DNA of 64,000 bases from Candidatus Latescibacterota bacterium (GTDB taxonomy: Bacteria; Latescibacterota; UBA2968): assembly GCA_965204745.1 (NCBI GenBank), contig OZ242010.1:2240001-2304000 (forward strand). The letters run 5' to 3'. Shown here in pieces: positions 5,268-50,227 of the stretch (position 1 is its first letter; every line of letters starts with the position of its first letter). The notes beneath the pieces are model-generated. The model ran no database searches and was not told where the DNA came from. It saw only the letters and a list, made by a program, of their open reading frames with translations. Position numbers and translations under genes: made by a program.

Positions 5268-7259
5268 ATGGACGCCATGACTTTGACCGCAAATGCAATG
5301 GTCGATCCGAGAGATCGCGCAACCGCCGGCGCGACAGTGCGATCCCTGATATTCGGGCTCGTGCTGGTCGTTGCGATCAGCGCGTTGGCAACGGTCGTGC
5401 GCTATATTTTGCACAGTTCCTTCATGGCGTATAGCCACATGCCCATGGGCAATCTGATGCTGACGTTGCTGAGTGTGATCGCGTGTAGCGCGCTCGCACG
5501 GTGGTTTGGCAAACGATTTGCCTTTTCCCCGGGGGAATGGCTCGTGATTTTTTCGATGGGCTTCGTCAGTTCCCTCGGCCCGACTTATGGGGTCAGCGGG
5601 TATCTGGTCGGGGTCATCGTCACGCCTTACTATTTTGCCACGCCCGAAAACCGATGGGCAGAATTTTTGCATCCCTATTTGCCCGAGTGGATCATCCCAT
5701 CCAATCGCGATGGCGCGATGACGTGGTTTTACGACGGCTTGCCCGCTGGCGCGCCCGTGCCGTGGGCCGTGTGGCTCGGCCCGCTTTTTTGGTGGTTCAC
5801 CTTTGTGTGTGCGGTGGCGCTGGCCTGTTTTTGTGCATCCGTGATTATGCGGAAGCAGTGGGCAGAACACGAAAAACTGGTCTATCCCGCGATGGAGCCC
5901 ATCGTCGAATTGACCACGCAACCCGGCACGGGACAGACGTGGTTGCCCGATTTTATGCGGGGGCGAATGTTCTGGACCGGGTTTGGCGTGGTGGCTTTGG
6001 TCTTTGGGTGGAATATCATCGCTTGGTTTCATCCCGCGTTGCCCAAATTCCCCACTGCCGCGGGCACCTGGGTGCCCATCGGGCGAAATTTTCCGCCGCA
6101 GTGGGTGTTCGTCAGCACGGTGGGAATCTGCTTTTCGTACTTTGCGAGTTTGGAAGTGTTGCTCAGCTTGTGGGTTTTCGATCTGATGTTCACCGTCGAG
6201 TCCGGCATTTTGGATCAATTAGGCGTGCCGGCCTTTCACCGCTACTACGCCACCAAGCGCTATTCATGGCAAACGACGGGCGCGTTTGTCGGCCTCGCCT
6301 TGTGGTGGGTGTGGATTGCGCGGGCGCATCTGAAAGACGCATTCAAAAAAGCCCTGCATCCGAAAAGCGGGCATATCGATGACCGCGGGGAACTGATGTC
6401 CTATCGCGCGGCCTTTTGCTGTCTCGCGGTTTCAATCGCCTACGCGCTGGTGTGGTTGTCAGCGGCGGGCATCGCACCGAAGGTCATCGCCATTTTGTTG
6501 CCGACCATGTTTTTGACCTACGGTGCGGTCTCGAAAATTTTAGCCGATTCTGGCTTGATTTACGTCAATGCGCCGGCGTCGGCCTGGACCCTGACCACGG
6601 CGTTGATGGGCGGCGCACGCGCCATTCCCGCGGGGACACACGCCATGCTGTATCCGGCTTCGGTCGCCATCAACCACTTTCGCGGATTCACGTTTTCCGT
6701 GGGCACGCATCTCAACCGGTTGGCGGATTTCATCCCCGGCAACAAACGCCCCTTGTTCGGCGGCATCTGCATCGCGTTTGTCGTGGGCATCTGCTCATCC
6801 ATGTTGTTCACGATTTGGTTGGGCTATCGCATCGGCGGCTATAATTTTTCCCCCAACTGGCTCATCATCCGCGCTGGCGTGGGCGGGTACCAAAATGCGG
6901 TCAACGCCATTGTTTCGCCGCAACCCATGGAAGTGATCGATTACTGGTTTTTCGCTATCGGGTCTTGTGCGATGTTCGCCCTGTTGTTCTTGCGGTACCA
7001 ATTCACGCGGTGGCCCCTGCATCCCATCGGCCTCGCGTTGTCCGGCACGATGCTCGCCCGGCTCACCAGTTTCACCATTTTTGTCGCGTGGCTGATCAAG
7101 TTCGTTTTGCTGCGAATCGGCGGCGCGCCCTTTTACCGCAGGTCAAAGCCGTTTTTTGTGGGCATGCTGGTGGCGTATGTGTTGTCGACGGCCTTGGGCC
7201 TCGTTGTCGATGCGCTGTGGTTTATGCCCCGCGGGCACACCGTTCACAAATGGTATTGA
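5268..7259 (+). CDS. DUF6785/DUF6784-type polytopic membrane protein (putative transporter), copy 1
   Basis: Many transmembrane segments; PYYFATPENRW, QWAEHEKLVYP and WPLHPIG; paralog of 57971-59965. Confidence 0.7.
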   Translation: MDAMTLTANAMVDPRDRATAGATVRSLIFGLVLVVAISALATVVRYILHSSFMAYSHMPMGNLMLTLLSVIACSALARWFGKRFAFSPGEWLVIFSMGFVSSLGPTYGVSGYLVGVIVTPYYFATPENRWAEFLHPYLPEWIIPSNRDGAMTWFYDGLPAGAPVPWAVWLGPLFWWFTFVCAVALACFCASVIMRKQWAEHEKLVYPAMEPIVELTTQPGTGQTWLPDFMRGRMFWTGFGVVALVFGWNIIAWFHPALPKFPTAAGTWVPIGRNFPPQWVFVSTVGICFSYFASLEVLLSLWVFDLMFTVESGILDQLGVPAFHRYYATKRYSWQTTGAFVGLALWWVWIARAHLKDAFKKALHPKSGHIDDRGELMSYRAAFCCLAVSIAYALVWLSAAGIAPKVIAILLPTMFLTYGAVSKILADSGLIYVNAPASAWTLTTALMGGARAIPAGTHAMLYPASVAINHFRGFTFSVGTHLNRLADFIPGNKRPLFGGICIAFVVGICSSMLFTIWLGYRIGGYNFSPNWLIIRAGVGGYQNAVNAIVSPQPMEVIDYWFFAIGSCAMFALLFLRYQFTRWPLHPIGLALSGTMLARLTSFTIFVAWLIKFVLLRIGGAPFYRRSKPFFVGMLVAYVLSTALGLVVDALWFMPRGHTVHKWY

Positions 7260-7322
7260 TTCGAGCCGCGCATTTCGCTACACTTGTGCAACAGGAAAAC
7301 AAAGCTTTTCGAGGGGAACGCC

Positions 7323-10300
7323 ATGGATCGTCGCCTGGGTCGGTTGGCATTGATCGGGTTTGTGGTGGTCGGGTTTGGGACCGTTATTTTGGGGCCGGAT
7401 ACGGTCGATCCGCTGTTGCGCGCTGCGTTGGGGTTGCAGACGCCCGAACCGGTCGCGCCCGCGCCTGTGCCGGGTGCCGATGTGGTGGCGGATCGGGTGA
7501 AGCGCGAAATCACCGAGGCCGAGGTGCGTGCGTTGATGGGGGCGTTTACGCAAGGCGGATCGCGCGTGCCGGGGTATCCGGGGCACGCTAGGGCCGCGGC
7601 GTTTATCGAAGAGCGGTTTCGATCCCTGGGGTTGGAAGATGTGGAGACCGAGGCTTACGGGGTGACGTCGCCTGTGGATGAAGGCAGCCGCTTGACCCTC
7701 GTCTCGTCTGGCGAGGTGTTCCCGCTGTTTGGGCTGTGGCCGAATCTGGTGAAGACCGCCACCTTGCCGCCGGGGGGCGTTCGCACGCGCTTGATCGACG
7801 GGGGCGATGGCGAGTTCAAGGCGTACGATGGCAAGGCCGTGGAGGGCGCGGTCGTGTTGTTGGATTTTAATACGTGGAACAGATGGCTCAACGCGGCGAT
7901 TTTGGGCGCGGAACAAGTCATTTTTATCGAACCGGATTCCACATCTTACTCGCAGGCCGAGACGAAATTTTTGCAAGTGCCCAACAGCATCGAGCGGTTT
8001 TGGATCGACCGAGAGCACGGGGAAAGGTTGCGCGCGCTGTTGGCAGACCGCGGGGAAATTGAGGTGCAACTCGAATCGCGGATGCCCTGGAAAAAAGGCG
8101 AGGTGGCCAATGTACTGGGCTGGATCGAGGGAACGGATGCGGAATTGTCGAAAAAAATCGTGGTGATCAACGCTTATTACGACGCGATGTCCGTGGTGCC
8201 CGCGCAGGCGCCGGGCGCGGAAATGGCGTGTGGCATCGTGGGGTTGATGCGGTTGGCCGCGTATTTTCGGGCGCATCGCCCCAAGTACACGCTGCTCTTT
8301 TTGGCATCGTCGGCGCATCACCTGGGATTTAGGGGGATCTGCGATTTTTTGAACCGGCATTCGCGCAAGGAAGAGCACTTTGCGGCCCTGATGACCGAAC
8401 CCATCGACATCGCGCTGTTCATCGGGTTGGACCTGTCTAGCCAGACCGCGGAGATGGGCGTGGCGAGTCAGACCGCTGGCTTTTCTGCGAACGCGGCGGT
8501 CAATTATTTTTACACGCGGTTTTTCGCGGTTTTTGGCAAGTCCTTCACGCGCTATGCCACCGCCATCGCCAAGGGCATCGGCGCGCCGTCAAAAGACGCG
8601 ATGGTCGATGGGATCAATCCCAAAGGCGGGATGACGTGGGATATGTACATCCCCGGGGAAAATATCAAGAGCGACAGCGAAGTGGTGTTGTACGCGGGCA
8701 CGCCTGCGCTGTCGTTGACCACGGTGAACGACGCGCGATTTCGGGTGGATACCCCGCTGGATCGGCCCGAGTTCGTGAATTACGACAATTTGACGCAGCA
8801 GATTCGCGTGCTCGCAGGCGTGCTGGATCTGTCGTTGAACAGCGATGACTTTTTGCCCGATTACAAGTTGGACCCCGATGATCGCATGCGCGGGCTGAAG
8901 GGCTTTGTCCGCACATTTCCCCGGCGGAGCATCACGCCGGACAAACCGCGCCCGGGCGCGATAGCCGCCATGCGGATGGGGTTGGAAAAGTCGATCAAGG
9001 GCGTGCGCCGGATTTATTACGACCTCGCAGACGACAACGGCGAGTACTATATCCCCGGCGTGGCAGAGCGCAGGGTACACGTGCGCGCGTACTATCTCGA
9101 CCCGGAAACCGGCGAGATCACGTACGCGCCCAACATGGGGCGGCAGGGCAAAATTTACAGCGGCAATTTCGACATGAACTGGTGGATCACCAAGCAAACC
9201 GTGATTTTGTTTCCGTGCGTGGCAACGGATTTTTACGGCACGGTGGACCCGCGCTACTTGACCACGTTGTCGAATATCAGCGTGTACGGGGCGGGCAATA
9301 CCGCGCCGCAGGAATACGGGTACGCGGTCGGGTTTGGCCCGGATGAACCGGTCGGCGTGGTCTTTACGTCGCCGGGGGAACGGGTGAAAATTGCGATGCG
9401 CGCCGGGGTGATCGGGGTGCGCTTTTTGTTGCTCAATTCCAAAAGCGCGGACGATGAGTGGGAGGCGCGCGGCGAGGGATTTCAAACCCTGTCGTCGGGC
9501 GCGCTGGTCCGCACGCCCTATCGCGCCGCGCGGGATATGTGGATGCTGAACGAGTCGCGCATGCGGAAGTTGCGCCAGTACTCGATAGAGAACCAGCGGC
9601 TAGAGGCCTTGCACGCACAGGCCAAAGAACACTTGGACGAGGCCGAGGTCGCGTTGCGGGAAAAGCAATGGGATGCGTTTGTCAAGCACACGCGCGCGGG
9701 CATGGGCATCGAGTCGCGGGCGTACCCAGATGTGAAATCCACGCAGAACGACGTGATCCGCGGCGTGATTTTCTTCATGCTGCTGGTGATCCCGTGTGCG
9801 TTTTTCCTCGAGCGGCTGATTTTTACCTTTGCCGATATTCGCATGCAAATCACCGGCTTTGGCGCGGTTTTTGTGGTGATCTGGATTTTCCTGTCGCAGG
9901 TGCATCCCGCGTTTGACTTGTCCAACCCCTTTGTGATTTTGCTGGCTTTTGTGATTATGGCACTGGCGATTTTTGTGATTTCGATTTTGGCGGGCCGGTT
10001 CAACGAGAATATCCGCCGCCTACGCAGCGCAGAGGTGTTGTTGCACGAAACCGATGTGGGCCGGGTCAGCGCGTCTGTGGCCGCGTTTCAGTTGGGCATC
10101 GCCAACATGAAAAAGCGCAAGTTGCGGACGTGGTTGACCTTTGCGACGCTGGTGTTGCTGACCTTTACCGTGCTGTCGTTCACGTCCATCAAATCCGCAT
10201 TGGAATTTCACCAACTCCAGCGAGACGCGGAAGGCGCGTATCCGGGGGTGTTGATCAGAAGCAAGTTTTGGGGGCCATTGGAAGATACGGCGTACGATTA

Positions 10301-11849
10301 TGCGCGGATCAATTTCAAAGACGCGGGCACGGTGGCGCCCCGGAGTTGGTACGTCGCGACGCGGGAACAAAAAAAATCGAAGGCCGTGCTGTGGTCGAAC
10401 AAAAAAAGTGCCCGCGCCCAAGGCGTGTTGGGCCTCGCGCCCGAAGAAGCACGGGTCACGCGCATCGACACCTTGTTGCGCGCCGGGCGATGGTTTCAAC
10501 CCGGGGAATCGGCCTGTGTTTTGCCCGACCGCATGGCAGAACTCTTGGGGGTGACAGCGGGGCAAGTGGGCGAAAAGTACATTCGCATTTTCGGCAAACA
10601 ACTGAAAGTGATCGGGGTGATCGATTCCGAGAAGATGCGGGCCTTTGTCGATTTGGATGAGGAAATTTTGACGCCCGCGGATTTTCAAGTGACCGATGAC
10701 GAGTTCATCACCGTCATGTCGCAGACCGAGAGCCGGGAGCGGCAGGGCTTGGAACGGCCCGAGGTCGAGACCGTGCCATTTGAACACCTCGATCCGGACG
10801 AGATCGCCATCGTGCCCTACGCGCTGTTGCGCGACGTGGGCAGCCCCTTGCAGTCCGTGGCCGTGCGCTTTCACGAGGCCGTGGATGTCGAGGCCGAGAT
10901 CAAGTCGTTTTTGTCGCGCCTGTCCGTGGTGCTGTTCGCGGGCATCCCGACCGCAGATGGGGGCATCCGAGTGGCGGTGTACAGTTCGCTGGGCGATACG
11001 TCCCTGCGGGGGTTGTCCAATTTGTTCATCCCCATTTTGGTGGCCGCGCTGATCGTGCTCAACACGATGATGGGGTCCGTGTACGAGCGATTTCGGGAAA
11101 TCGGGATTTATTCTTCGGTGGGCCTGGCGCCGGTTCACATCGCGTTTTTGTTCATCGCCGAGGCGTGTGTGTACGCGGTTTTGGGCACGGTGGCCGGGTA
11201 TTTGTTGGGGCAAAGCGTCGCCAAGTTTTTGTTGTGGCAAGACGCGCTGCAAGGGATGACCGTGAATTATTCCGCGCTTTCCACCGTGACGTCGTCCATG
11301 CTGGTGATGTTGGTGGTGCTGCTGTCCTCGGTCTATCCCGCGCGGCAGGCGTCCCTGATGGCCGTGCCGGATGTGACGCGCCGCTGGAAATTCCCAGAGC
11401 CAGAGGGCGATCACTGGCATTTTGAGTTTCCATTCACCGTCGGCGGCAAGGACGTCTTTGGGCTGTCCGTGTTCTTGGTCGATTATTTTCAAGCACACGC
11501 GGGCGAGAGTTTGGGCACGTTTTACACGGATGGCGCGCGCTTCGGCTCGGTTGAGACCCCGGCCGGACAGGGCTATGCGATAGACACGACCATCTGGTTG
11601 GCGCCTTATGATTTGGGCGTGAGCCAGCAGGTGCATTTTGAAGCCGTGCCCACGGGCGAACACAATATTTTTGCGATGGCACTGACGATAGACAGGCTGT
11701 CGGGCGACGCGTCTTCATGGCGGCGGGTCAATCAGAATTTTATGAATTTGTTGCGGAAGCAGTTCCTGATTTGGCGCACCGTGGCGCCAGAAGACAAGGC
11801 GCGATACACGGAAAAAGGGCGGGGCATGCTGGTCGAGGCGGTGGCTTGA
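7323..11849 (+). CDS. Large membrane protein: M28-peptidase-like ectodomain plus a MacB/FtsX-type permease domain, copy 1
   Basis: N-terminal TM segment; SRVPGYPG, NVLGWIEG, INAYYD and APGAE (M28-like fold); central TM bundle; NTMMGSVYERFREIGIYSSVGLAP...FIAEA and SVYPARQAS (FtsX signature). Confidence 0.75.
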   Translation: MDRRLGRLALIGFVVVGFGTVILGPDTVDPLLRAALGLQTPEPVAPAPVPGADVVADRVKREITEAEVRALMGAFTQGGSRVPGYPGHARAAAFIEERFRSLGLEDVETEAYGVTSPVDEGSRLTLVSSGEVFPLFGLWPNLVKTATLPPGGVRTRLIDGGDGEFKAYDGKAVEGAVVLLDFNTWNRWLNAAILGAEQVIFIEPDSTSYSQAETKFLQVPNSIERFWIDREHGERLRALLADRGEIEVQLESRMPWKKGEVANVLGWIEGTDAELSKKIVVINAYYDAMSVVPAQAPGAEMACGIVGLMRLAAYFRAHRPKYTLLFLASSAHHLGFRGICDFLNRHSRKEEHFAALMTEPIDIALFIGLDLSSQTAEMGVASQTAGFSANAAVNYFYTRFFAVFGKSFTRYATAIAKGIGAPSKDAMVDGINPKGGMTWDMYIPGENIKSDSEVVLYAGTPALSLTTVNDARFRVDTPLDRPEFVNYDNLTQQIRVLAGVLDLSLNSDDFLPDYKLDPDDRMRGLKGFVRTFPRRSITPDKPRPGAIAAMRMGLEKSIKGVRRIYYDLADDNGEYYIPGVAERRVHVRAYYLDPETGEITYAPNMGRQGKIYSGNFDMNWWITKQTVILFPCVATDFYGTVDPRYLTTLSNISVYGAGNTAPQEYGYAVGFGPDEPVGVVFTSPGERVKIAMRAGVIGVRFLLLNSKSADDEWEARGEGFQTLSSGALVRTPYRAARDMWMLNESRMRKLRQYSIENQRLEALHAQAKEHLDEAEVALREKQWDAFVKHTRAGMGIESRAYPDVKSTQNDVIRGVIFFMLLVIPCAFFLERLIFTFADIRMQITGFGAVFVVIWIFLSQVHPAFDLSNPFVILLAFVIMALAIFVISILAGRFNENIRRLRSAEVLLHETDVGRVSASVAAFQLGIANMKKRKLRTWLTFATLVLLTFTVLSFTSIKSALEFHQLQRDAEGAYPGVLIRSKFWGPLEDTAYDYARINFKDAGTVAPRSWYVATREQKKSKAVLWSNKKSARAQGVLGLAPEEARVTRIDTLLRAGRWFQPGESACVLPDRMAELLGVTAGQVGEKYIRIFGKQLKVIGVIDSEKMRAFVDLDEEILTPADFQVTDDEFITVMSQTESRERQGLERPEVETVPFEHLDPDEIAIVPYALLRDVGSPLQSVAVRFHEAVDVEAEIKSFLSRLSVVLFAGIPTADGGIRVAVYSSLGDTSLRGLSNLFIPILVAALIVLNTMMGSVYERFREIGIYSSVGLAPVHIAFLFIAEACVYAVLGTVAGYLLGQSVAKFLLWQDALQGMTVNYSALSTVTSSMLVMLVVLLSSVYPARQASLMAVPDVTRRWKFPEPEGDHWHFEFPFTVGGKDVFGLSVFLVDYFQAHAGESLGTFYTDGARFGSVETPAGQGYAIDTTIWLAPYDLGVSQQVHFEAVPTGEHNIFAMALTIDRLSGDASSWRRVNQNFMNLLRKQFLIWRTVAPEDKARYTEKGRGMLVEAVA

Positions 11850-12066: not shown

Positions 12067-12267
12067 TTGGCAGAAGGAAGAGTTAAGTGGTTTAACGACG
12101 CCAAGGGATTCGGTTTTATCGAACAGGAAGGGGGCGAAGATGTTTTCGTCCATTTTTCCGCGATTCAATCCGAGGGTTTTAAGTCTTTGGCCGAAGGTGA
12201 CTACGTCGAATTTGACATCACTCAGGGGCCGAAGGGACTCCAAGCCTCGAATGTCGTGAAGCAATGA
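12067..12267 (+). CDS. cspA: Cold-shock protein
   Basis: [15 protein letters not shown] and DVFVHFSAI (RNP1/RNP2); TTG start. Confidence 0.93.
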
Positions 12268-12687: not shown

Positions 12688-15600
12688 TCATTGGAAGTGG
12701 GAGGCGGGATAGAGGCTTCGGATGTAGGGTTCAATTTCTTGAGCGGTCGTGCGCGTAGCAGTTTGCTCGATGACGTTCCCTCTGACGAGGGCCTCGTTCC
12801 GGAAGAAGAGGACGTATCGAATGATCAGGATTATATCCGAGAACAGCCTCACATCGCCATCGCCATCCACATCGAGAATGTTCTGATTGACCAACGTGTC
12901 GAGGTAGGGTTCAATTTCTTGAGCGGTCTTGCGCGTGGCAGTTGGCTCGATGACGTTCCCTCTGAGGAGGGCCTCGTTCCGGAAGAAGAGGACATATCGA
13001 ATGACCAGGATTATATCCGAGAACAATCTCACCCGGCCATCGCCATCCACATCCAAGTTGGCACTCGGGGTTTCGTCATCGATAATCGTCCCGGTGCCTT
13101 GCGCCGTGCTTATGGTCGCATTGGTCGCACTGCTCAGCGTCACGATCACGGTCTCGTTCGGCTCATCATCCCCGTCGTCGGTCACGGAAACAGGGATGGT
13201 CTGGATGGTATCGCCTACCGCGAAGGTCAGGGTCCCTGCGGTGAGCGCGGTGTAATCGGTCCCCGAAGTCGCGCTGCCCGTGCCCGCGTCTGCATACGCC
13301 ACCGTCACTTGTGCCGTGTGCGCCGGGCTTAGGTACACCCGAAAGGTTAGGGTCGCGCCGGTCGCGCCTTCAATCACGCTGGGCGAACCGATACTCAGCG
13401 CAGGCATGCCATCGTCATCGATAATCGTCCCTGTGCCTTGCGCCGTGCTTATGGTCGCATTGGTCGCACTGCTCAGCGTCACGATCACGGTCTCGTTCGG
13501 CTCATCATCCCCGTCGTCGCTCACAGAAACAGCGATGGTCTGGCTGGTCGTGCCCGCCGCAAAGGTCAGGGTCCCTGCGGTAAGCGCGGTGTAATCGGTC
13601 CCCGAAGTCGCGGTGCCCGTGCCCGCGTCTGCATACGCCACCGTCACCGCCTTGCCGCTCGCCGCATTCAATCTAACGGTGAACGTCAGGGCAGTGCCCT
13701 CAACCGCACTCGGCGAACTAATCGAGAGCCTCGGTTGAGGGTCATCATCGGTGATCGTTATCTCGGTCGGGAGGACCACACTGCCCTGGGCGTTGTCTGA
13801 CACAACGGACATGTCCACGTCGCGATTAAGTTCGTCTCGGGTGTTGTCCACCGCTGTGATGATCACTGTATCCGACGCGTTCGCGGTTTGCCCGGCCGCG
13901 ATGGTGATCGTCGAATCCGTCCCCACCGTGTAAGCACCCGCCACAGGACGCACCGTGATCGTCGTCGCCGCGCTCAACGGGTGTGCCAGCGTCGCGGTCA
14001 CGGTGCTCATCCCACCGCTTTCCGAGATCGACGAGGGCGTCAGTACCAACGTCACGACCGCGGGTTGAAGCTGAAATTGCACGATGGTGTCCAGGCCGGC
14101 ATACTTCAAGGCCGGATACTGATCCATCGTGCCAAAGGTCCACGGATCGTCGTTGCCGGCTTGTCCGTCTATGTTGGCGTTCCAGTTGTAGTAGGTGTCG
14201 TTGCTGGTGGCACCGTAGGTGGTGGGGCTCTGAAGCTCGCTGGTCGTCTTGCCCGCCGCGCCGCTACCGCCGAGGCTGGTTTGGCGTCCGCTGGTTTGGG
14301 TGTCCCAGTAGCTGCCGGTAACCGTGCCCGTGCCGGAAACTGCCTCGCCCAACAGCCCGCCGATAGATGTCATCGACCCGCTGGAGAGGCTGACCGCGCC
14401 GGTGGAGTAGGAGTTTGTTATGGAGCCGGTGGTCGCTTTTGAGCCTACCAGCCCACCGAGGTTCTGAGTCGCGCTGACGGATGCGAGGGAGTAGCTTGTG
14501 GAAATGGAGCCTCCGGTCCAGCCGACCAGACCGCCGACGACATTGTCGCCCGTCATGCGACCGGTGGTGTAGCAGGCGACGATTTCGCCGCGATTGCCGC
14601 CGACCAGAATGGCACTAAAGTCGTCTGCCGTAACATCGGCGTCGGTTACGCCCAGCGACTCGATGCGGGAGTTGGTGCCGGTGCCGCCGAACAGTGCTTG
14701 GTAGCTAACGGTGCTGCGGCTGATGAACAGGTTTTGGACGGTGTAGCCGTTGCCTTTGAAATCGCCTGTGTATCGTAACGCTGGGTTGGCGTCGGAGCCG
14801 ATGGGCATCCAGCCTTGGCCGCTATTCCAGTAGGCGGCGTCTGCTGAGGTGATTGCGCCATCGTTGTTCTCGTCAAAATCCAAATTGTTGAGCAGTTCGT
14901 AGCCAGTGCAACCGCTGGAAGGGCAACCCTTGCTCGCTGACAAGTTCCCGTTGGGAAAGGCGGCGTTGTAGGCGGTCGTATCGGCGGTCGTGGCACTTGA
15001 GTCTATGGCACCATCGCCATTGATATCCCAGCGCATGGCATGCAGTTGGGCCAAGGTCGAGACCTCGAGGAGGCCATCGCTATCCGTGTCGTAATTCACG
15101 GGTTGGGCAGCGTACTGCGCCGTGGTGTCCAGGCCGGCAAACGTCAAGACCGGATACTGCTTTGTCGTGCCAAAGGTCCAGGGATCATCATCGTTGGTCC
15201 CCGAAGCATCTATGGTCAGATCGTCCCAAGCGGCATAGATGCCACTCGCAGCCGTGACCGATTGTAAGTCGGAGGTCAGCTTGCCCTCCGGCGCAACAGT
15301 ATCGCTATCATCGGCAATGTCGCTTGTTTGCGTGTCCCAGTAGCTATCGGTCACTGTACCAGCCGAACTGCCCACCAACCCGCCTTTCGTGCCGGCACCC
15401 GTGACTGCGCCCGTCGCGTAACTGGCGGTCACGCCACCGCCGCTCGCGATTTGACCCACCAACCCGCCGCCCACCGCGTTGCTGTGTCCCGCGAACACAG
15501 AGCCCAGCGCGTAAGACGCCACCACCTCGGTCTGATCGGTCAGCCAACCCACCAAACCGCCAGCCATCCCGTCACTCGTCACAGTCGCAGGAATGCTCAC

Positions 15601-18291
15601 AGAGACGAGCGCGTAGCTGCTCACAATGCGGTTAGTGCCCGAAGTGCGATAAGACCGACCAACCAAACCACCCACACCCCACTTCGACCCCGAAACGCGA
15701 CCCGTCACATAACACGACGAGATGGTGCCCCCACCACCTTGATTACCGGCCAGACCCCCCACGCGGTCAGCACCGGTCACATTCACATTCAACAACCCCA
15801 ACCCCGAAACATCGCCATCAACCGCATGGAACAATCCTGTATCATGCCGAGACCCCCGGTCGATGAACAGGTGGGAGATCGTCTTGTTGTTGCCTTTGAA
15901 CGTGCCGCTGTAAGGCCCCAGAGGGAGCCAACCCGCGCCGCTATTCCAGTAGGTGGCGTCTGCTTGGGTGATCGCGCCGTCGTTGTTCTCGTCAAAATCC
16001 AAGTTGTTGAGCAGTTCGTAGCCAGTGCAACCGGTGGAAGGGCAACCCTTGCTCGCTGACAAGTTCCCGTTGGGAAAGGCGGCGTTGTAGGCGGTCGTAT
16101 CGGCGGTCGTGGCACTGGCGTCTATGAAACCATTGCCATCCAAATCCCAGCGCATGGCATGCAGTTGGGCCAAGGTCGAGACCTCGAGGAGGCCATCGCT
16201 ATCCGTGTCGTAATGCACGGGTTGGGCAGCGTACTGCGCCGTGGTGTCCAGACCGGCAAACGTCAAGGCCGGATACTGCTTTGTCGTGCCAAAGGTCCAG
16301 GGATCATCATCGTTGGTCCCTGAAGCATCTATGGTCAGATCGTCCCAGTTGGCATAGATGCCGCTCGCAGACGTGACCGATTGTAAGTCGGCAGTCAGCT
16401 TGCCCTCCGGCGTAGCAGTATCGCTATCATCGGCAATGTCGCTTGTTTGCGTGTCCCAGTAGCTATCGGTCACTGTACCTGAGTTTTCCGCCAGCCCATG
16501 CTTGTGCAGGCAGGCCCCCGTCACTGATCCCAGCGAGTAGCTCGACGCGATCGTCGCACCCGAACCATTGGCACCTACCAACCCGCCGCCAGTGGCCCAC
16601 GGCCCCGACTGATTGCACACCACAGACGCCGTGGCGTAACTCGCCACGATGTACGACCCCCTCTGAGCGGCGCCCACCAACCCGCCGACATTGGTGTTCG
16701 CCGTGACCGACCCCGTGACGTAACTCGCCGCGATCCGACCCTTGTTCAGACCCACCAGCGCGCCCACCGTGCCCTGACCCGTATTGATCACCGCGTTGAC
16801 CAACCCCAAAGAGCGGATGTGGGCAGTGGTATCCGTGCTTGCGAAAAATCCCGAAAAGTTGACGTAGCGGTTGATGTACAGGTGGGAGATCGTCTTGCCG
16901 TTGCCCTCAAATGTGGCGGTGTACGGGGCGGTGTTGCTACCGATGGGTGCCCAGCCCGCGCCGCCATTCCAGTAGGTGGTGTCTGCTTGGGTGATTGCGC
17001 CATCGTTGTTCTCGTCAAAATCCAAGTTGTTGAGCAGTTCGTAGCCGATGCAGGTACCGGATGGGCAACCCATCCGGCCGGTACTGCTGGTGTTGCGGAG
17101 GGGAAAGGCGGTGCCATAATCGGCGTGGGTAGCGTCGCCATTGCCGTTGAGGTCGTGGCGAATGGCGTTGAGTTGCGCCAAGGTGGTGATGTCAATCAGG
17201 CGGTCGTTGTCCAGGTCGTAGTCGGTGGCCGGTCGGCCCTGGGCAACCAGGGAATGACCGCTGTACTTCAGCACCGGATACTGCGATGACGTTCCGAAGT
17301 CCCAGGGGTCGTCGTTGCCGGAGTTGCTGTCTATGTTGACGTTCCATGCGGAGTAGATGCCGGTGTAGCCGGTGGGGCGCTGGAGGTCGTCGGTAGCATA
17401 GCCCGTGCCGCCGTCGCTTGTGGTCTGTACGCTGGTTGTGGTGTCCCAGTAGCAGGCGGTCAGGTTGCTACCGCCTGCTGTAATAGAGTCGCCCGTTAGC
17501 CCGCCGACGTAGTTACTGCCGCTGACTCGGCCGGTGGAATATGAGTTTGTTATAGCGTACCCGGTATGCAGAAATCCCACCAGGCCGCCGACGTAGCGAG
17601 TGCCGCTGACGGATGCGGTAGAGTAGCTTGTGGAGATAGATCCGCTTAGGTGTCCGATCAATCCGCCGCTAAGATCACCATTAGCGGTGACCGCGCCGGT
17701 GGTGTAACAGGCGACTACTGTGCCTCGATTGGTGCCAATCAGAATGCCGGTATTTTCATTCCCCGTTACATTGGCGTTGGTTACGCCTAGGGTTTCGATG
17801 AGGCTAGTGGAGTGAATAGCACCGAACAGCCCGACGTGGTTGATGGTGGAGCGGCTGATGAACAGGTTGTTGATGGTGTGGCCGTTGCCTTTGAAAGCGG
17901 CTTGGTATCTGGTTGATGCGCTGGCGTCAGTGCCGATGGGGGACCAGCCGTTGCCGCTGTTCCAGTAGGTGGCGTCTGCTGAGGTGATTGAGCCATCGTT
18001 GTTCTCGTCAAAGTCCAAGTTGTTCATCAACTCGTAGCCGGTGCAGGTGGCCTGGCAACCCATGCCCGAGGCGGCGTAGGGAAAGGCGTCGTTGTAGGCC
18101 ACGGTATCACCAGCGGCTACGGAACCATCGCCATTGAGGTCATAGCGAATGGCATTCAGTTGCGCCAAGGAGGTGACATCAATCAGGTTGTCGTTGTCCG
18201 TATCGTAGTCGGTTTGGGCAAAAGCCTGCCCCGATGCCACCAGCATGACCAGCGCGACCAGGGCCAACAAATGAGCGTAGCGGGGCGTCAT
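12688..18291 (-). CDS. Giant secreted/surface protein: 4 GLUG-motif units, 2 Calx-beta domains and a duplicated C-terminal dockerin/EF-hand-like domain
   Basis: Signal peptide MTPRYAHLLALVALVMLVASGQAFA (ATG 18291); repeated DYDxDxDxL, GGLVG and YWDTQTS; GTATSGTDY...LTFAAG...DDEPNETVIVTLS (Calx-beta); 2x LDVDGDG...LFSDIILxIRY. Confidence 0.85.
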   Translation of the reverse strand: MTPRYAHLLALVALVMLVASGQAFAQTDYDTDNDNLIDVTSLAQLNAIRYDLNGDGSVAAGDTVAYNDAFPYAASGMGCQATCTGYELMNNLDFDENNDGSITSADATYWNSGNGWSPIGTDASASTRYQAAFKGNGHTINNLFISRSTINHVGLFGAIHSTSLIETLGVTNANVTGNENTGILIGTNRGTVVACYTTGAVTANGDLSGGLIGHLSGSISTSYSTASVSGTRYVGGLVGFLHTGYAITNSYSTGRVSGSNYVGGLTGDSITAGGSNLTACYWDTTTSVQTTSDGGTGYATDDLQRPTGYTGIYSAWNVNIDSNSGNDDPWDFGTSSQYPVLKYSGHSLVAQGRPATDYDLDNDRLIDITTLAQLNAIRHDLNGNGDATHADYGTAFPLRNTSSTGRMGCPSGTCIGYELLNNLDFDENNDGAITQADTTYWNGGAGWAPIGSNTAPYTATFEGNGKTISHLYINRYVNFSGFFASTDTTAHIRSLGLVNAVINTGQGTVGALVGLNKGRIAASYVTGSVTANTNVGGLVGAAQRGSYIVASYATASVVCNQSGPWATGGGLVGANGSGATIASSYSLGSVTGACLHKHGLAENSGTVTDSYWDTQTSDIADDSDTATPEGKLTADLQSVTSASGIYANWDDLTIDASGTNDDDPWTFGTTKQYPALTFAGLDTTAQYAAQPVHYDTDSDGLLEVSTLAQLHAMRWDLDGNGFIDASATTADTTAYNAAFPNGNLSASKGCPSTGCTGYELLNNLDFDENNDGAITQADATYWNSGAGWLPLGPYSGTFKGNNKTISHLFIDRGSRHDTGLFHAVDGDVSGLGLLNVNVTGADRVGGLAGNQGGGGTISSCYVTGRVSGSKWGVGGLVGRSYRTSGTNRIVSSYALVSVSIPATVTSDGMAGGLVGWLTDQTEVVASYALGSVFAGHSNAVGGGLVGQIASGGGVTASYATGAVTGAGTKGGLVGSSAGTVTDSYWDTQTSDIADDSDTVAPEGKLTSDLQSVTAASGIYAAWDDLTIDASGTNDDDPWTFGTTKQYPVLTFAGLDTTAQYAAQPVNYDTDSDGLLEVSTLAQLHAMRWDINGDGAIDSSATTADTTAYNAAFPNGNLSASKGCPSSGCTGYELLNNLDFDENNDGAITSADAAYWNSGQGWMPIGSDANPALRYTGDFKGNGYTVQNLFISRSTVSYQALFGGTGTNSRIESLGVTDADVTADDFSAILVGGNRGEIVACYTTGRMTGDNVVGGLVGWTGGSISTSYSLASVSATQNLGGLVGSKATTGSITNSYSTGAVSLSSGSMTSIGGLLGEAVSGTGTVTGSYWDTQTSGRQTSLGGSGAAGKTTSELQSPTTYGATSNDTYYNWNANIDGQAGNDDPWTFGTMDQYPALKYAGLDTIVQFQLQPAVVTLVLTPSSISESGGMSTVTATLAHPLSAATTITVRPVAGAYTVGTDSTITIAAGQTANASDTVIITAVDNTRDELNRDVDMSVVSDNAQGSVVLPTEITITDDDPQPRLSISSPSAVEGTALTFTVRLNAASGKAVTVAYADAGTGTATSGTDYTALTAGTLTFAAGTTSQTIAVSVSDDGDDEPNETVIVTLSSATNATISTAQGTGTIIDDDGMPALSIGSPSVIEGATGATLTFRVYLSPAHTAQVTVAYADAGTGSATSGTDYTALTAGTLTFAVGDTIQTIPVSVTDDGDDEPNETVIVTLSSATNATISTAQGTGTIIDDETPSANLDVDGDGRVRLFSDIILVIRYVLFFRNEALLRGNVIEPTATRKTAQEIEPYLDTLVNQNILDVDGDGDVRLFSDIILIIRYVLFFRNEALVRGNVIEQTATRTTAQEIEPYIRSLYPASHFQ

Positions 18292-18611
18292 ATCAGACTC
18301 ATCTCGGGGGACTGTACTGATCATCCTAACGGACTGTTTCGCAATGAAATAGAACCGCACTCCAAGATGGGAATGGGCGATATGAACGCCAGTTTTCACG
18401 GTGGAAACATAGTGCCAAATGAGGTTCAAACAGCGGCTGAAAATGGCGGTAATCATCTGAATCCTCCTTTGCAAAAGCACTGTCGCACAGACCGGGCGCG
18501 GCTTTCCTTCGCACTCAAAATCGCAATGGTGAACGGAAAAAAATAAAAAATCGCGCTATTATTTTTCAAACGAAAAAATGACGATAGGATCGGTGGTCAG
18601 TCAAGCGAGAA

Positions 18612-18754: not shown

Positions 18755-19921
18755 ATGGTACATTATGATCGGCGGTTAAAAATTGCGTTGCCCAGCAGAC
18801 AATCGGCCTTTTTGTGGGGGCCGCGCAAAACCGGCAAATCCACCTATCTCAAAGCAACATTTCCCAACAGCTTGGTCTATGACTTTCTGAAGACGGATCT
18901 GATGTTGGATTTTAACCGGCGGCCGGCCCTGTTGCGCGAGCAACTTCTCGCACAGCCCGATGCGGTGCTGGCGCGTCCGATTATCTTGGACGAGGTGCAG
19001 CGCGTGCCGCTCGTGTTGGACGAAGTGCATTGGCTCATCGAAAACAAGGGGTTGCGTTTTATCCTGTGCGGCTCCAGTGCGCGAAAGCTCAAGCGGGGCC
19101 GGGCGAATTTGCTCGGTGGTCGCGCGTGGCGATACGAGATGTTTCCGCTGGTGACAGATGAGTTGCCCGATAGCGATGTGGATCTGTTGACCATTTTGAA
19201 TCGCGGGCTGATACCCGATCATTTTGCCACCGCGCAATACCGCCGTTCCCTGAATGCCTATTTGCAAGATTACCTAAAGGAGGAAGTTTTTGCCGAGGGG
19301 TTGACGCGCAATATCCCGGCGTTTTCCAGATTTTTTGACGCGCTTGGATACACACACGGCGAGTTGACCAATTTTTCCAATATCGCACGCGAGTGCGGCG
19401 TGAGTTCCAAAACCGTGAAGGAGTATTATCAGATTCTCGTGGATACGCTTTTGGGGCGCGTGGTCGAACCGTTCAAAAGACGCCAAAGTCGCCAAGTGAT
19501 TTCCAAAGCATCCAAGTTCTATTTGTTCGATGTGGGCGTGGCCGGCGCGCTTGCAAAACGGCATTTGCCAGACGCGCACGGCGAGGTTTTTGGCAAGGCG
19601 TTTGAGCACTTTATTTTTGTCGAACTGGCCGCGCATGCTTCTTATGGCGCGTTGAATTACGACATTCACTTTTGGCGCACCAAGTCCGGGTTGGAGGTCG
19701 ATTTTGTGCTGGGCAATGGCGAGGTGGCCCTCGAGGTCAAAGGCGCGAGGCGAATAGATAACAAAACTCTCCGGCCCCTGCACGCATTTATCGAGGAATA
19801 CGCGCCCAAAAAAGCACTCCTCGTTTGCAATGAAACCGCAGAACGCGCGGTTGGCCCCATTCGCATTGTCCCGTGGAAAATATTTTTGCAATCGCTATGG
19901 GCAGGTGAGGTGATTTCGTGA
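18755..19921 (+). CDS. AAA-family ATPase with DUF4143 and a C-terminal PD-(D/E)XK-like domain
   Basis: Walker A GPRKTGKS; Walker B LDEVQ; CGSS; LLGGRA; KFYLFDVG; FWRTKSGLEVDFV...LEVK. Confidence 0.85.
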   Translation: MVHYDRRLKIALPSRQSAFLWGPRKTGKSTYLKATFPNSLVYDFLKTDLMLDFNRRPALLREQLLAQPDAVLARPIILDEVQRVPLVLDEVHWLIENKGLRFILCGSSARKLKRGRANLLGGRAWRYEMFPLVTDELPDSDVDLLTILNRGLIPDHFATAQYRRSLNAYLQDYLKEEVFAEGLTRNIPAFSRFFDALGYTHGELTNFSNIARECGVSSKTVKEYYQILVDTLLGRVVEPFKRRQSRQVISKASKFYLFDVGVAGALAKRHLPDAHGEVFGKAFEHFIFVELAAHASYGALNYDIHFWRTKSGLEVDFVLGNGEVALEVKGARRIDNKTLRPLHAFIEEYAPKKALLVCNETAERAVGPIRIVPWKIFLQSLWAGEVIS

Positions 19922-24248: not shown

Positions 24249-24674
24249 ATGACTGTTTCGACACTCGCCATCCCCAAATGGCACGGGCAAAGCATTATGG
24301 ACGAGCCTGCATTGCTGGAAGGCCGTCTGATGGCCGTGAATTGGGCCTGCGGCACAGCGGAGTTACACCGTAGGCATGGGGCGGTTGTGCCCTTGTGTTT
24401 TGGCCCCGCGCTCAACGACGCCGTGCGCGGCCTAACAACGCAACACGTCGAGATCAGAGGCCGCGGCCGCTTCAACGCCGAGGATCGGTGGGAGGTGGTT
24501 TGCGTGGAGCAAATCACCGGCACGCGGTCATTGTCAGAGCCGTTCGACCTCGAGGCATTTCGCAACAACCCCAATCCGAAGATATTCGACCCGGATAAAG
24601 TCATCGCGCTCGACCTAACGCAAGAAGAGTGGGAATCTTTCAACCGTGCGATACGCGAAGGAAGGGATGCCTGA
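24249..24674 (+). CDS. Hypothetical protein, probable antitoxin
   Basis: TGATG overlap with the downstream PIN gene; C-terminus LTQEEWESFNRAIREGR; the start could be ATG 24297. Confidence 0.5.
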   Translation: MTVSTLAIPKWHGQSIMDEPALLEGRLMAVNWACGTAELHRRHGAVVPLCFGPALNDAVRGLTTQHVEIRGRGRFNAEDRWEVVCVEQITGTRSLSEPFDLEAFRNNPNPKIFDPDKVIALDLTQEEWESFNRAIREGRDA

Positions 24675-25084
24675 TGCTTGCGAGTTTGCCCATCGTGCTC
24701 GATACCAGTGTCGTCTCAATACTCATGCGCCGAGAAGAATCGGCTACCTACTACTTGGATCGGACAGAGGGACGGCGTGCGGTCATTTCGTTCCAAACGC
24801 TGGAAGAGTTGTGGTTTGGTGCCTACAAAAGAGGCTGGGGCGACAGACAGATGAATGCCCTAAGGCAAAGCCTTGACCTATATGAAGTTCTGTGGCCGAA
24901 CATCGACATGGTGTATATCTCCGCGCATCTCCGTAGCCAACGGGAGTACGCGGGCCGCAGGCTAAACACAGCAGATTCATGGATCGCCGCAACCGCGATT
25001 GTGTTGGGTTGTCCCCTTGCGTCCCATGATCGAGACTTCTCCGGCATTCCCGGTTTGGAACTCATCCGAGCACCGTCACCATAA
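24674..25084 (+). CDS. vapC: PIN-domain (VapC-like) toxin
   Basis: VLDTSVV, TLEEL, ADSWIAATA and LASHDRDF. Confidence 0.85.
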   Translation: MLASLPIVLDTSVVSILMRREESATYYLDRTEGRRAVISFQTLEELWFGAYKRGWGDRQMNALRQSLDLYEVLWPNIDMVYISAHLRSQREYAGRRLNTADSWIAATAIVLGCPLASHDRDFSGIPGLELIRAPSP

Positions 25085-26518: not shown

Positions 26519-27286
26519 TCATGCCTCTTCAACAATGCGAATAAACTCATCTTCGAGCGTAGGCGTTTGCATCTGATCCTGAAACTCCGCAAACGTCCCG
26601 TCGAACCGCAACTGGCCCTTGTGAATAATGGCGAGGTCGTCACTGAGCAGGCTGACTTCCCCCATGCGGTGCGTGGAAAACAGCACGGTCTTTCCCGCAT
26701 CTCGGCAGTTGCGGATGAGGCGCACAATATTGCGCGACGTGACGACGTCGAGACCGGCGGTGGGTTCGTCGAACACGATGACATCGGGATCGTGAATGAT
26801 CGTGCGTACTATCGACACCTTTTGCTTCATGCCCGTGGAGAGCTTGCCAATGCGCCGGTCTGCAAATCCCTCCATGTCCAGCAACCCAAAGAGATGATCG
26901 CGCCGCCCTTGGTAATCCGCGCGGTTCAAGCCGTGCAAGTCCGCGAAATACTGCACCATTTCATCGGGCGTCAAGCGGTCGTACAAACCCGTGTTGCCCG
27001 TGAGAAAGCCGAGGTTTTGGCGCGCGGCATGGCTTTGTTCGACCGTGTCGTATCCCGCCACGCTGATGCGACCCGAGGTGGGTTTGAGCATGGTGGCGAT
27101 CATCCGCAGCGCAGTGGTCTTGCCCGCGCCATTGGGTCCCAACAGCGCGAACACGCGCCCGGGCCGGCACGTAAAACTGATATGCTGCACCGCGTCAATG
27201 GTATTCCCCTGAAACCCATCCTCCATCTCCCGCTTCTGCTGCCGCGACAGGGTGAAGGTTTTGACAATATTCTCTACGACAACCAT
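26519..27286 (-). CDS. natA: ABC exporter ATP-binding protein, NatA-like
   Basis: GPNGAGKTT, LSTGMKQK, FDEPTAGLD and STH. Confidence 0.85.
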   Translation of the reverse strand: MVVVENIVKTFTLSRQQKREMEDGFQGNTIDAVQHISFTCRPGRVFALLGPNGAGKTTALRMIATMLKPTSGRISVAGYDTVEQSHAARQNLGFLTGNTGLYDRLTPDEMVQYFADLHGLNRADYQGRRDHLFGLLDMEGFADRRIGKLSTGMKQKVSIVRTIIHDPDVIVFDEPTAGLDVVTSRNIVRLIRNCRDAGKTVLFSTHRMGEVSLLSDDLAIIHKGQLRFDGTFAEFQDQMQTPTLEDEFIRIVEEA

Positions 27287-29162: not shown

Positions 29163-29768
29163 TCAGGCGAGGTACAAATTGCGGATGCGATCCAATGTCC
29201 GTTTCAAACTGACAGATGCAGAAGCAGCGCGTTCCAAATTCCAATGATCGCGCACGAACTCGGCAAAACGCGCGTTAAATCCCGTGCCGACTTTCGCGGT
29301 AGTCGCGCTCGGGGCGGGAACCAATTCGCGCTTTAATTTTGTTTTTCTACTCCTTCGCGCAAGCGAAACGAGAAACTCTTTGGGATTTTCTATGCGGTCA
29401 GTGCTTTGCGGAATCCGATTGAGAGGTATCGACAGAAATTCCGCGATGCCCCTGCGATCTGCCATAATCCAAGATTCGATTTCCACGACCGCAACGCGAA
29501 AAATGAACCCAGAGTTTAGAGGCACGCCAACCCAAGATTGAATGAGTTTTGACGGACAATTTTGGAGAGAATCCAAATCCGTCAACAGAAAGACATTGTA
29601 AAACCCCCTGGCTACTTGGTTGAGTCCGGGGGCTTTTTGTTGGAGATAAGAATTTCCCTTATATCCAATTCTCTGTGCGATTTCGAGACCGAAGTATTCG
29701 AGAATTTTAGTCGAAACCGCATCGCTGAGTCTATCCTCAACAGCGAGGATGAAGGGTTCTGATCTCAT
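29163..29768 (-). CDS. DUF4276-like TOPRIM-fold protein
   Basis: AVED, LTDLD, EIESWIMAD and NPKE motifs; ATGA overlap with the upstream ATPase. Confidence 0.65.
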   Translation of the reverse strand: MRSEPFILAVEDRLSDAVSTKILEYFGLEIAQRIGYKGNSYLQQKAPGLNQVARGFYNVFLLTDLDSLQNCPSKLIQSWVGVPLNSGFIFRVAVVEIESWIMADRRGIAEFLSIPLNRIPQSTDRIENPKEFLVSLARRSRKTKLKRELVPAPSATTAKVGTGFNARFAEFVRDHWNLERAASASVSLKRTLDRIRNLYLA

Positions 29769-32698: not shown

Positions 32699-33100
32699 GA
32701 CGTTACGCGCAGATTAAAATGTGTTGCTTGCTGATTTAATGCGTTTGGTCCTTTGATGGCTTAGGTTGCTCTGATGGCGTTTTGCGAGGGGACCTATCCC
32801 CCGGCCCCTTTCCTACGAGGAAAGGGGAGTAAAGCTCCTTTGATGGCTTATATCAATGGCTGTTTTTAAGAGCGTTGCGCGAGGGCATAAAGCGATTGAA
32901 AATCCCTCATCAATCCCCTCGCAAAACCGCTCACAGTTCCCCCCCTTCCTCGCAGGAAGGGGGGTTAGGGGGGTAGGTCCCGATAAGGAGCGACTATTCC
33001 AGTTTCTCAAACCGAGAGCATATTCTGCGATAGAGCTTGATTTTCTCGATAAACCGCTCAAGCCAGTTGCTTTGCTCGTAAATGTCCTTTCTGTCAATAC
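32699..33100. mobile_element. Composite repeat: family A left part + family B palindromes + IS5 transposase 3' remnant
   Basis: TGACGTTACGC end; two B units; the minus strand encodes KDIYEQSNWLERFIEKIKLYRRICSRFEKL. Confidence 0.7.
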
Positions 33101-34738: not shown

Positions 34739-34910
34739 AATGAAATCCCGTAAATTCACAACGACGTTCAAAGTCGAAAAAATATAGGTTAAGCACGGGG
34801 AAAAATCAAGCGCGGGCATAACGCCCCAACTTGACACACACACCCCAAAATCGGGGATATTGAGATGAGATTGACAACTTGACAAAAACGCGGAGAAAGG
34901 AGCGTTTGTC

Positions 34911-42868: not shown

Positions 42869-42916
42869 GATATTCTCCTGTAAAAAAAAATGAACAAGTG
42901 ACGCCTAAAATGCAAT

Positions 42917-46502: not shown

Positions 46503-46519
46503 GGTGGTACCCTCCTTCT

Positions 46520-47947: not shown

Positions 47948-47986
47948 GGGGTATCCTTATTTAAGTTGTCTGTATCCCGCTTCACA

Positions 47987-48322: not shown

Positions 48323-48345
48323 GATCACCTGCTCTTATTTTTTTT

Positions 48346-50181: not shown

Positions 50182-50227
50182 CTCTCCACTCTCCCTCGCC
50201 TTCAACCGCGCCTTTGTGGTGATGGCA

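Follow-up and report, generated by a model that had tools for sequence, protein, structure and literature searches.

A recurrent gene pair of Latescibacterota that joins an OPT-like membrane protein to a giant FtsX-type permease with an M28-derived ectodomain: a possible nutrient-uptake machine

The 64-kb stretch of Candidatus Latescibacterota DNA considered here (the window) encodes, twice over, a polytopic membrane protein, A, followed by a giant fusion protein, B, in which an ectodomain related to M28 peptidases is joined to a permease module of the kind classed as type VII among ATP-binding cassette (ABC) systems and familiar from MacB and FtsX. The two genes are coupled well beyond the window, to the extent of being naturally fused in one cluster of relatives, and the predicted fold of A is of the OPT/Yellow-Stripe importer type. 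Together with a third gene product, C, where that is present, A and B are tentatively proposed to form one inner-membrane machine that imports a peptide-like or chelate-like nutrient, its ATPase being encoded elsewhere, a reading whose probability we put somewhat short of an even chance.

In the proposed scheme B would dimerise, as other type VII permeases do, and would be energised by a LolD/FtsE-type ATPase encoded elsewhere and possibly shared among paralogous modules. Movements that ATP drives in the FtsX module would be relayed to the ectodomain, which would capture, and perhaps trim, a periplasmic substrate, and this would be passed to the OPT-fold A (and C) and carried into the cell. 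With many paralogous modules per genome and an A that diverges faster than B, differing substrate specificities might be expected. A more specific form of the proposal, possible if on the unlikely side, is a new hybrid class of uptake system: an ATP-driven type VII mechanotransducer with an M28 'pseudo-peptidase' receptor, in physical contact with one or two secondary permeases of OPT fold whose substrate it feeds or gates, one ATPase serving several modules. If true, the hybrid would be the first link of the mechanotransmission ABC class to a secondary importer, would provide the first function for Pfam DUF6785/DUF6784, and would put a name to a main path of nutrient uptake in phyla that are known for the most part through metagenomes.

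Genetic coupling of A and B

When species-representative genomes were scanned with the alignment of B, 598 stretches were obtained, 560 of them confirmed. The best 80 of the confirmed stretches, taken with flanks of as much as 10 kb to either side, yielded the 79 loci on which the counts below are based; every one comes from a metagenome-assembled genome whose label is Latescibacterota, Gemmatimonadota/Gemmatimonadetes or 'uncultured bacterium'. For 71 of the 80 B genes the upstream sequence extends to 2.5 kb or more, and in 63 of these 71 cases an A gene precedes B on the same strand, directly in 55 and at a distance of 0.7-8.5 kb in eight, the latter all being copy-1 orthologues with insertions. 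A preliminary description of the window had named rare co-occurrence of the two genes elsewhere as one finding that would tell against its interpretation, and co-occurrence is evidently not rare. For 64 A-B pairs the pairwise identities of the two proteins correlate with r=0.907, a value reached by 0 of 999 Mantel permutations, with A diverging 1.37 times faster than B.

The duplication seen in the window recurs in relatives. One locus (L001) holds the copy 1 orthologue, with a B that is 95% identical, and another from the same genome (L013) holds that of copy 2, with B 94% and A 96.7% identical. Among the kept loci, both copy classes occur together in six genomes or bins, so the duplication is an ancient one, in which A and B were copied together.

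The strongest single argument for A and B acting as one complex is provided by a natural fusion. Protein P0533 (1,680 aa, encoded on a 259-kb contig) matches B1, the B of copy 1, over aa 526-1500 at 41% identity and then A1 over aa 3-650 at 26%, and contains FtsX, DUF6785 and DUF6784 in the order B then A. Its B part is the C-terminal two-thirds and its DUF6785/DUF6784 part is complete. Such fusions form one cluster, which includes P0486, among the 150 matches listed for the C-terminal domain of B1 (see below). The topology fits, in that the cytoplasmic end of B runs into the N-terminus of A. Should the coupling of B to A be what the fusion implies, an engine of MacB type is able to work for a secondary transporter, and the roles of type VII ABC systems are wider than has been apparent.

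Variant arrangements are also found, with a tandem A-B-A-B at L049:1027-14497 and A-A-B at L025:4080-12703. At L022:5834-9947 a DDE transposase and a dockerin/EF-hand gene occupy the place where A is expected.

An OPT-like fold for A

Both A proteins of the window match Pfam DUF6785 and DUF6784 above the gathering scores, A1 with an E-value of 4e-95 (319.6 bits) for the former and 3e-18 (66.2 bits) for the latter, and A2 with 332.6 and 75.5 bits, respectively. The AlphaFold model of A1, made from a 31-sequence alignment, has a predicted local distance difference test score (pLDDT) of 87.5 and a predicted template modelling (TM) score of 0.89. When it was compared with the PDB by Foldseek, the sole meaningful match was barley YS1 (7wsr/7wst; E 2e-8, probability 1.00, TM-score 0.55-0.67), all others having TM-scores of about 0.1; the superposition extends over some 690 columns with a sequence identity of 14-15%. 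According to PMC9691689, YS1 imports Fe(III)-phytosiderophore, forms a homodimer and is built of a core domain and a scaffold domain.

As modelled, then, A has a fold of the OPT/Yellow-Stripe importer type, which points to uptake rather than to envelope biogenesis. The preliminary description had left both open ('a new transport or envelope-biogenesis complex'), and it is the first that the fold favours. In terms of membership of the OPT/YSL family, the shared fold is seen in the model and the PF03169 (OPT) profile is not found. At E<=10 the A-family profile matches no PDB sequence, that of YS1 included. An Atlas cluster of archaeal DUF6785 proteins in which 11% of members have OPT is a lead only. 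The model is the first structural lead for DUF6785 and DUF6784, and links both to OPT/Yellow-Stripe importers.

The permease half of B

B1 begins with an N-terminal anchor helix, followed by the ectodomain, a helical hairpin, three membrane helices, the FtsX module and a cytoplasmic domain (Table 1). Pfam FtsX (PF02687; 2.4e-15, aa 1248-1357) and MacB_PCD (PF12704; 2.2e-7, aa 994-1144) are both matched by B1, the latter above the cut-off, and FtsX by B2 (6.9e-16), in which MacB_PCD is absent at E<=0.1. A B-family profile, built from 25 members, finds MacB (5lil, 1.3e-10), YtrF, LolC and LolF in the PDB with aa 1154-1344. The model of B1 aa 735-1521 has a mean pLDDT of 66, its periplasmic and C-terminal domains being confident and its membrane helices not. 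With Foldseek it retrieves MacB, LolCDE, HrtBA, YtrEF and YbbAP at E-values from 1e-12 to 1e-6 (1e-12 to 1e-8 for MacB and LolCDE), and BceAB and the isolated periplasmic domain of MacB, 3ftj (TMt 0.57), are found as well.

The coupling helix is highly conserved. The segment SVYERFREIGIYSSVGLAPVHIAFLFIAE of B is almost entirely invariant or nearly invariant in the 25 sequences and aligns with the coupling-helix region of MacB; in the cytoplasmic coupling-helix motif ERFREIG...G, between transmembrane helices 2 and 3, residues E1268, R1269, E1272 and G1280 are invariant. Of the hallmarks of a type VII ABC permease, B has the four-helix FtsX domain, the MacB-type periplasmic domain and the coupling helix, and does not have a fused or adjacent cognate ATPase.

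The flanking parts of B1 are less familiar. The three-helix bundle ahead of the FtsX module is strongly conserved, its helices being of low confidence in the model, and the helices of aa 743-807 are modelled at pLDDT 75-88. The C-terminal domain, placed directly after the last transmembrane helix, has no Pfam family or PDB sequence match, and the Foldseek list for the model of the C-terminal half consists of MacB-type chains only, with nothing on this domain. The architecture given in the preliminary description, an ectodomain, a coiled segment, a transmembrane bundle and a MacB/FtsX domain, is thereby recovered, the 'coiled' helical segment and the three-helix bundle being visible both in the model and in a hydropathy scan.

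An altered M28 site in the ectodomain

Among the families for which a profile search had been suggested, DUF6785, DUF6784 and FtsX were matched in the window pair, and Peptidase_M28 gave no match in either B1 or B2 at E<=0.1. The relationship is nevertheless detectable by other means. With aa 58-350 the B-family profile matches the M28 aminopeptidases 2ek8 (2.9e-12), YwaD (6hc6, 1.2e-9) and 1amp (2.5e-4) in the PDB, and it also matches Nicalin (7tm3, 1e-4). The matched aminopeptidases include the PA insert, and the ectodomain of B is of M28/PA derivation. Many relatives of B do carry PF04389, the Peptidase_M28 family.

Homology to M28 is thus found, and the zinc ligands and catalytic Glu that define an active member are not. 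In the alignments with 2ek8 and YwaD, HHD/HYD is replaced by YYD, GAnDD by GA-E and EE by HH, so that YYD, PGAE, AHH, LDLSS and NDAR stand in place of the canonical motifs. In these, the last M28 Asp would be kept, in LDLSS, and the last His replaced, in NDAR. The replaced residues show no variation in the 25 aligned family members, and those proteins of the wider family that aligned repeat the pattern [YF][YF]D, PGA[ED], H, LDLS, DxR. Since the replacements are conserved across both the family and the wider family, the site is, to judge from the alignments, repurposed and not decayed.

The extent of the wider family is seen when the C-terminal domain of B1 alone is used as query against proteins clustered at 50% identity: 1,442 cluster representatives match at E<=1e-3, of which 1,047 still do so at E<=1e-10. 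Among the 150 matches listed, nearly every protein ends with this domain, the lengths being mostly 1,450-1,900 aa and reaching 3,053 aa. A Pfam scan of 23 of the 150, picked for long and varied lengths, found FtsX in all 23, Peptidase_M28 in 16, MacB_PCD in five, Big_5 in three, and LysM, Rubredoxin and Baseplate_J in one each. Named members come from Latescibacterota, Planctomycetota, Candidatus Poribacteria and Armatimonadota (Capsulimonadaceae), and are annotated as 'FtsX-like permease family protein' or 'M28 family peptidase'; related genomes hold several copies of the B module each. A literature search on DUF6785, DUF6784, FtsX-M28 permeases and Latescibacter FtsX or oligopeptide transporters found nothing relevant, in keeping with the earlier remark that no described function was known for the module. 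The giant B proteins, at least 1,047 clusters of them, thus include none found studied in the literature.

An ectodomain of peptidase descent controlled by an FtsX module brings the cell wall to mind, and the module might serve its remodelling or recycling, with the ectodomain acting on peptidoglycan peptides and A and C importing what is released. An importer-fold partner would suit peptide recycling, LysM domains are present in one wider-family cluster (P0396, P0519), and FtsEX systems activate periplasmic peptidoglycan hydrolases, on the evidence of the available text of PMC7668044. This explanation is quite improbable, however, given that LysM is restricted to one of the 23 sampled wider-family proteins, that several paralogous modules with a fast-diverging A fit diverse substrates better than one housekeeping role, and that no division or cell-wall genes are conserved nearby.

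The source of energy

The preliminary description reported no ATPase next to the module, and in the window that is so. There is no LolD-type ATPase in its 64 kb and no ATPase domain in B. The sole ABC ATPase of the window (26519-27286, minus strand), 14 kb from B1, belongs to the DrrA/ABC-2 type and has an ABC-2 permease of its own beside it; it was rejected as a partner of B.

For the operon the statement holds throughout; in relatives, however, an orphan gene for a LolD/FtsE-type ATPase recurs close by, and the coupling helix is kept. Of 65 loci with enough sequence, 12 have the gene on the same strand no more than 5 kb upstream of B, and three others have it at a greater distance; in 11 loci it is 0.6-1.0 kb upstream of A. 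In a midpoint-rooted tree of 76 full-length B proteins the 15 ATPase-bearing loci fall in two clades. Its best NCBIfam matches are LolD, FtsE, DarD, DevA and MacB (2.8e-68 to 2.8e-62), with YbbA also matched, families all of which we take to partner FtsX-type permeases, and no other FtsX-type gene is near it in the locus stretches of about 20 kb. It is usually divergent to a xylose-isomerase-like TIM-barrel gene.

What lies between the ATPase gene and the module is pertinent. A tRNA-Phe gene on the opposite strand stands between the ATPase and A in six loci (L011, L014, L024, L031, L036 and L040), and between the ATPase and B in L022, which is without A. This gives a tRNA-Phe separator in seven of the eight ATPase-bearing loci among nine scanned, none being seen in the eighth, L026. 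A small opposite-strand open reading frame (ORF) lies between the ATPase and the module in 10 loci. The LolD-type ATPase gene was rejected as a member of the operon, the opposite-strand tRNA-Phe separating it from A in the scanned loci. Supply of the ATPase in trans has moderate support, and with an orphan LolD-type gene near the module, the power source of orphan FtsX permeases becomes a testable question.

Power may not be needed at all. B could be an orphan FtsX scaffold or passive switch, its C-terminal domain replacing the nucleotide-binding domain, and could act as a receptor or pseudo-peptidase that gates A. Pertinent here are the operon without ATPase in the window and all 79 loci, the conserved 157-aa cytoplasmic domain after the last transmembrane helix with its 1,442 representatives, and a non-canonical M28 site like those of the receptor-like transferrin receptor and of Nicalin, the latter a PDB match; orphan FtsX permease families such as ADOP also exist. 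Such independence of an ATPase is decidedly unlikely, nevertheless, with a MacB-like coupling-helix motif almost entirely conserved, an orphan LolD-type ATPase gene recurring near the module, and a C-terminal domain that has no visible nucleotide-binding motif, Pfam match or PDB sequence match.

Gene C and other recurrent neighbours

Of the 76 cases with enough downstream sequence, 50 have a third gene, C, immediately after B; in one C is 6.4 kb away, and the other 25 have none. Its product is a polytopic membrane protein of about 805-846 aa (e.g. L013:14518-16956; also in L011, L014, L022, L024, L031 and L057) with no Pfam or NCBIfam family. C is found in most B clades; the exceptions are two, one of them the copy-1 clade (0 of 10). 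It is present in 12 of 12 loci of the copy-2 clade, beginning 9 nt after B in L013, and the window cuts copy 2 off at the point where C comes next in that orthologue, so that C is very probably the next gene of copy 2 past base 64000. The module had been thought of as a two-gene machine; by the distribution of C across the B clades, A-B-C is ancestral and the two-gene state derived.

The C family has 2,640 matches at E<=1e-3 among 7,999 scored. A relative of C with 74% identity is named 'OPT/YSL family transporter' by NCBI, and the Atlas name for its cluster is 'Peptide transporter family', both being leads only. The C profile found no match among PDB sequences at E<=10, and so none to YS1.

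Certain clades have further neighbours. In the deepest B clade, C is followed by a gene for a 330-aa protein, without Pfam or NCBIfam family, and one for a PqqD-like peptide chaperone, in 18-19 loci (L057:16976-18326, also L050 and L060-L079); NusG_II and Hpre_diP_synt_I genes precede the module there, and about half of the loci of this clade are without A. Eight copy-2-class loci have, 1.3-2 kb upstream of A, a gene for a short HlyD-like adaptor, accompanied by an FGE-sulfatase gene (L014:5736-7525, also L016-L019, L021, L023 and L033), and in L014 the tRNA-Phe on the opposite strand is between these two genes and A.

These neighbours are relevant to the possibility of the opposite direction, in which B would expel or extract a peptide, lipopeptide or envelope component from the inner membrane or the periplasm, and A and C would supply the product or flip it outward. 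The closest solved relatives of B, namely MacB, LolCDE, HrtBA and YbbAP, are all exporters or extractors, and the PqqD-like chaperone and 330-aa protein downstream of C, the HlyD-like adaptor upstream of A and a GT87 gene ahead of A1 in the window and in two close genomes could all be accommodated. Export or extraction is unlikely even so. The sole structural match of A is an importer, and no gene for an outer-membrane duct is conserved beside the module. HlyD, GT87 and PqqD are each limited to one clade, with the tRNA of L014 separating HlyD from A.

Points at variance with uptake

Several considerations weigh against the uptake proposed here for A, B and C. To our knowledge, the characterised type VII ABC systems all export, extract or regulate, and none serves an importer. 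A direction of transport is suggested for A by the likeness of its modelled fold to that of an importer and by no other feature. At E<=10 the PF03169 profile is matched by none of 31 members of the A family and by none of 17 of the C family, and A and C as paralogues had to be dropped, no relation being detected by hhalign (probability 2%, E 0.023). A is absent near B in eight of the 71 testable cases, one of them a locus with an insertion sequence element at the site.

There is also the matter of the ATPase, for which neither the window nor any of the 79 loci has a gene in the module's operon. The proximity of the orphan gene to the module could be inherited synteny, given the opposite-strand tRNA-Phe or ORF that separates it from A. 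In the model the extra C-terminal domain of B appears to sit near the place where a nucleotide-binding domain would be expected to dock. Trimming of peptides by B, for which the scheme allows, seems doubtful because the M28 site, as aligned, is non-canonical, and the PqqD-like gene of the deepest clade would fit export or maturation of peptides no less than their uptake.

Comparison with known systems

The best match for the C-terminal half of B, in sequence and in fold, is MacB, of MacAB-TolC, with which it shares the four-helix FtsX domain, the periplasmic domain between transmembrane helices 1 and 2, and the coupling helix. In MacB an ATPase is fused at the N-terminus, and the protein operates together with MacA and TolC, whereas B has no ATPase domain and its partner is a transporter with an OPT-type fold. 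B also has some 930 residues N-terminal to the FtsX module that MacB does not, comprising the anchor helix, the ectodomain of about 780 aa and three transmembrane helices, and in addition the C-terminal cytoplasmic domain.

Coupling of an FtsX-type module to an extracytoplasmic domain of hydrolase type is shared with FtsEX (with EnvC, PcsB, RipC or CwlO) and with YbbAP-TesA, as far as the available texts of PMC7668044 and PMC12646458 describe them. By analogy, the likeness supports mechanotransmission over transport through the B permease itself. In those systems, however, the hydrolase or activator is separate and the ATPase gene adjacent, while in B the domain is fused and has non-canonical residues, and the ATPase is outside the operon.

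An ectodomain that is membrane-anchored, of M28-type fold with a PA-like insert, and without the canonical di-zinc site is found in Nicalin, and the M28-type ectodomain of the transferrin receptor, which also has a PA-like insert, lacks the canonical di-zinc site too. B differs from both in being bacterial, in the strict conservation of the replaced residues (Y/F-Y/F-D, PGA-E/D, H, LDLS, D-x-R) and in fusion to an ABC-type permease. The ADOP proteins of Acidobacteria (TIGR03434) are likewise a large paralogous family of FtsX permeases without adjacent ATPase genes, in their case with the FtsX domain duplicated, whereas B has one. Membership of B in ADOP was rejected, the TIGR03434 score being 25 bits against a cut-off of 622.

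A superposes on barley YS1 and differs from it and other OPT proteins in consisting of DUF6785 and DUF6784, in the absence of PF03169 and in being genetically tied to an FtsX-type protein. We know of no report of an OPT protein tied in this way, and none was found in the literature. The B module is thus of the type VII ABC kind, with a conserved partner that is without precedent.

The two copies in the window and their surroundings

The ORF tables and translations confirm that the pair is present twice in the window, as had been observed (Table 1). A1 and A2 are 43% identical over 657 aa, and B1 and B2 70% (949/1,358). The longest ORF for B1 is 7284-11849 on the plus strand, from a TTG at 7284; the true start is most likely the ATG at 7323, to judge from the GAGGGG ribosome-binding site that precedes it, and the length from there equals the 1,508 aa of the database orthologues. 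For copy 2, the perfect sigma-70 promoter and the overlap of the genes that had been described are both there, the overlap amounting to 8 nt (A2 TAA at 59963-59965, B2 ATG at 59958), so that A and B are coupled in translation. A promoter scan around copy 1 found four sites against 4.3 expected from shuffling, and so no excess, and with Rfam at gathering thresholds there were 0 matches to riboswitches or other known RNAs in the whole window.

Table 1. Coordinates of the gene pairs, of the parts of B1 and of related features (aa numbers refer to the ORF)
Feature	Sequence	Coordinates	Strand	Remarks
A1	window	5268-7259	+	663 aa; DUF6785+DUF6784 polytopic membrane protein, predicted OPT/Yellow-Stripe-like fold
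B1, giant fusion protein	window	7323-11849	+	1,508 aa from ATG 7323
M28/PA-derived part of B1 ectodomain	window	7455-8843	+	aa ~58-520; non-canonical active-site residues
Strand-rich part and helical hairpin of B1 ectodomain	window	8844-9728	+	aa ~521-815; no Pfam/PDB sequence match
Three-helix transmembrane bundle of B1, ahead of FtsX module	window	9732-10022	+	aa ~817-913; hydropathy scan
Type VII ABC (MacB/FtsX) permease module of B1	window	10065-11369	+	amphipathic helix, transmembrane helix 1, periplasmic MacB-like domain, transmembrane helices 2-4
C-terminal cytoplasmic domain of B1	window	11376-11846	+	157 aa, alpha/beta; pLDDT ~70-89
Sigma-70-type consensus promoter before A2	window	57846-57874	+	TTGACA-17 nt-TATAAT; read from sequence
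A2	window	57971-59965	+	ATG 57971; longest ORF begins 57845; DUF6785+DUF6784
B2, second giant fusion gene	window	59958-64000	+	3' end open at window end
LolD-type ATPase	locus L031	6324-7112		
tRNA-Phe	locus L031	7555-7630	-	

Downstream, copy 1 is adjoined by csp (12068-12267), as had been noted, and then by a giant gene on the minus strand. This gene, convergent with copy 1, is a 1,930-aa ORF with Calx-beta and GLUG motifs (12688-18480), and its product is probably a surface or adhesin-like protein on the strength of those motifs. The neighbours that had been taken as hints of envelope or polymer handling, GT87, a sugar epimerase and PhyH, did not prove to be conserved. GT87 is confined elsewhere to the two closest genomes, none of the 79 loci holds a relative of the window's xylose-isomerase-like gene, and PhyH is represented across the loci by weak paralogues only, 4-7 kb away; without conservation, GT87, the xylose-isomerase-like gene and PhyH were dropped as functional clues.

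Other features of the window are recorded for completeness. A gene pair on the minus strand at 29163-30925 is a candidate defence system, HEC-01, with matches of 3.9e-153 to HEC-01A (an AAA_21 ATPase) and 1.1e-52 to HEC-01B (DUF4276), and an ATPase with AAA_14 and DUF4143 at 18755-19921 on the plus strand matches the PADLOC candidate PDC-S01 at 9.3e-47. Four PQQ-like beta-propeller proteins with BamB-type repeats are encoded in a run on the minus strand at 41612-56556, among them genes for a HemN-like radical SAM enzyme, an iron alcohol dehydrogenase, an aldehyde dehydrogenase and an LDL-receptor-repeat/dockerin protein, with a DDE transposase (48350-49438) also inside the run. A ParB and ParA partition pair on the minus strand (33094-34885) adjoins genes for pyruvate phosphate dikinase and a TonB-dependent receptor, and a PIN-domain gene on the plus strand (24249-25084) overlaps a small upstream ORF in a manner that resembles a VapBC-type toxin-antitoxin pair.

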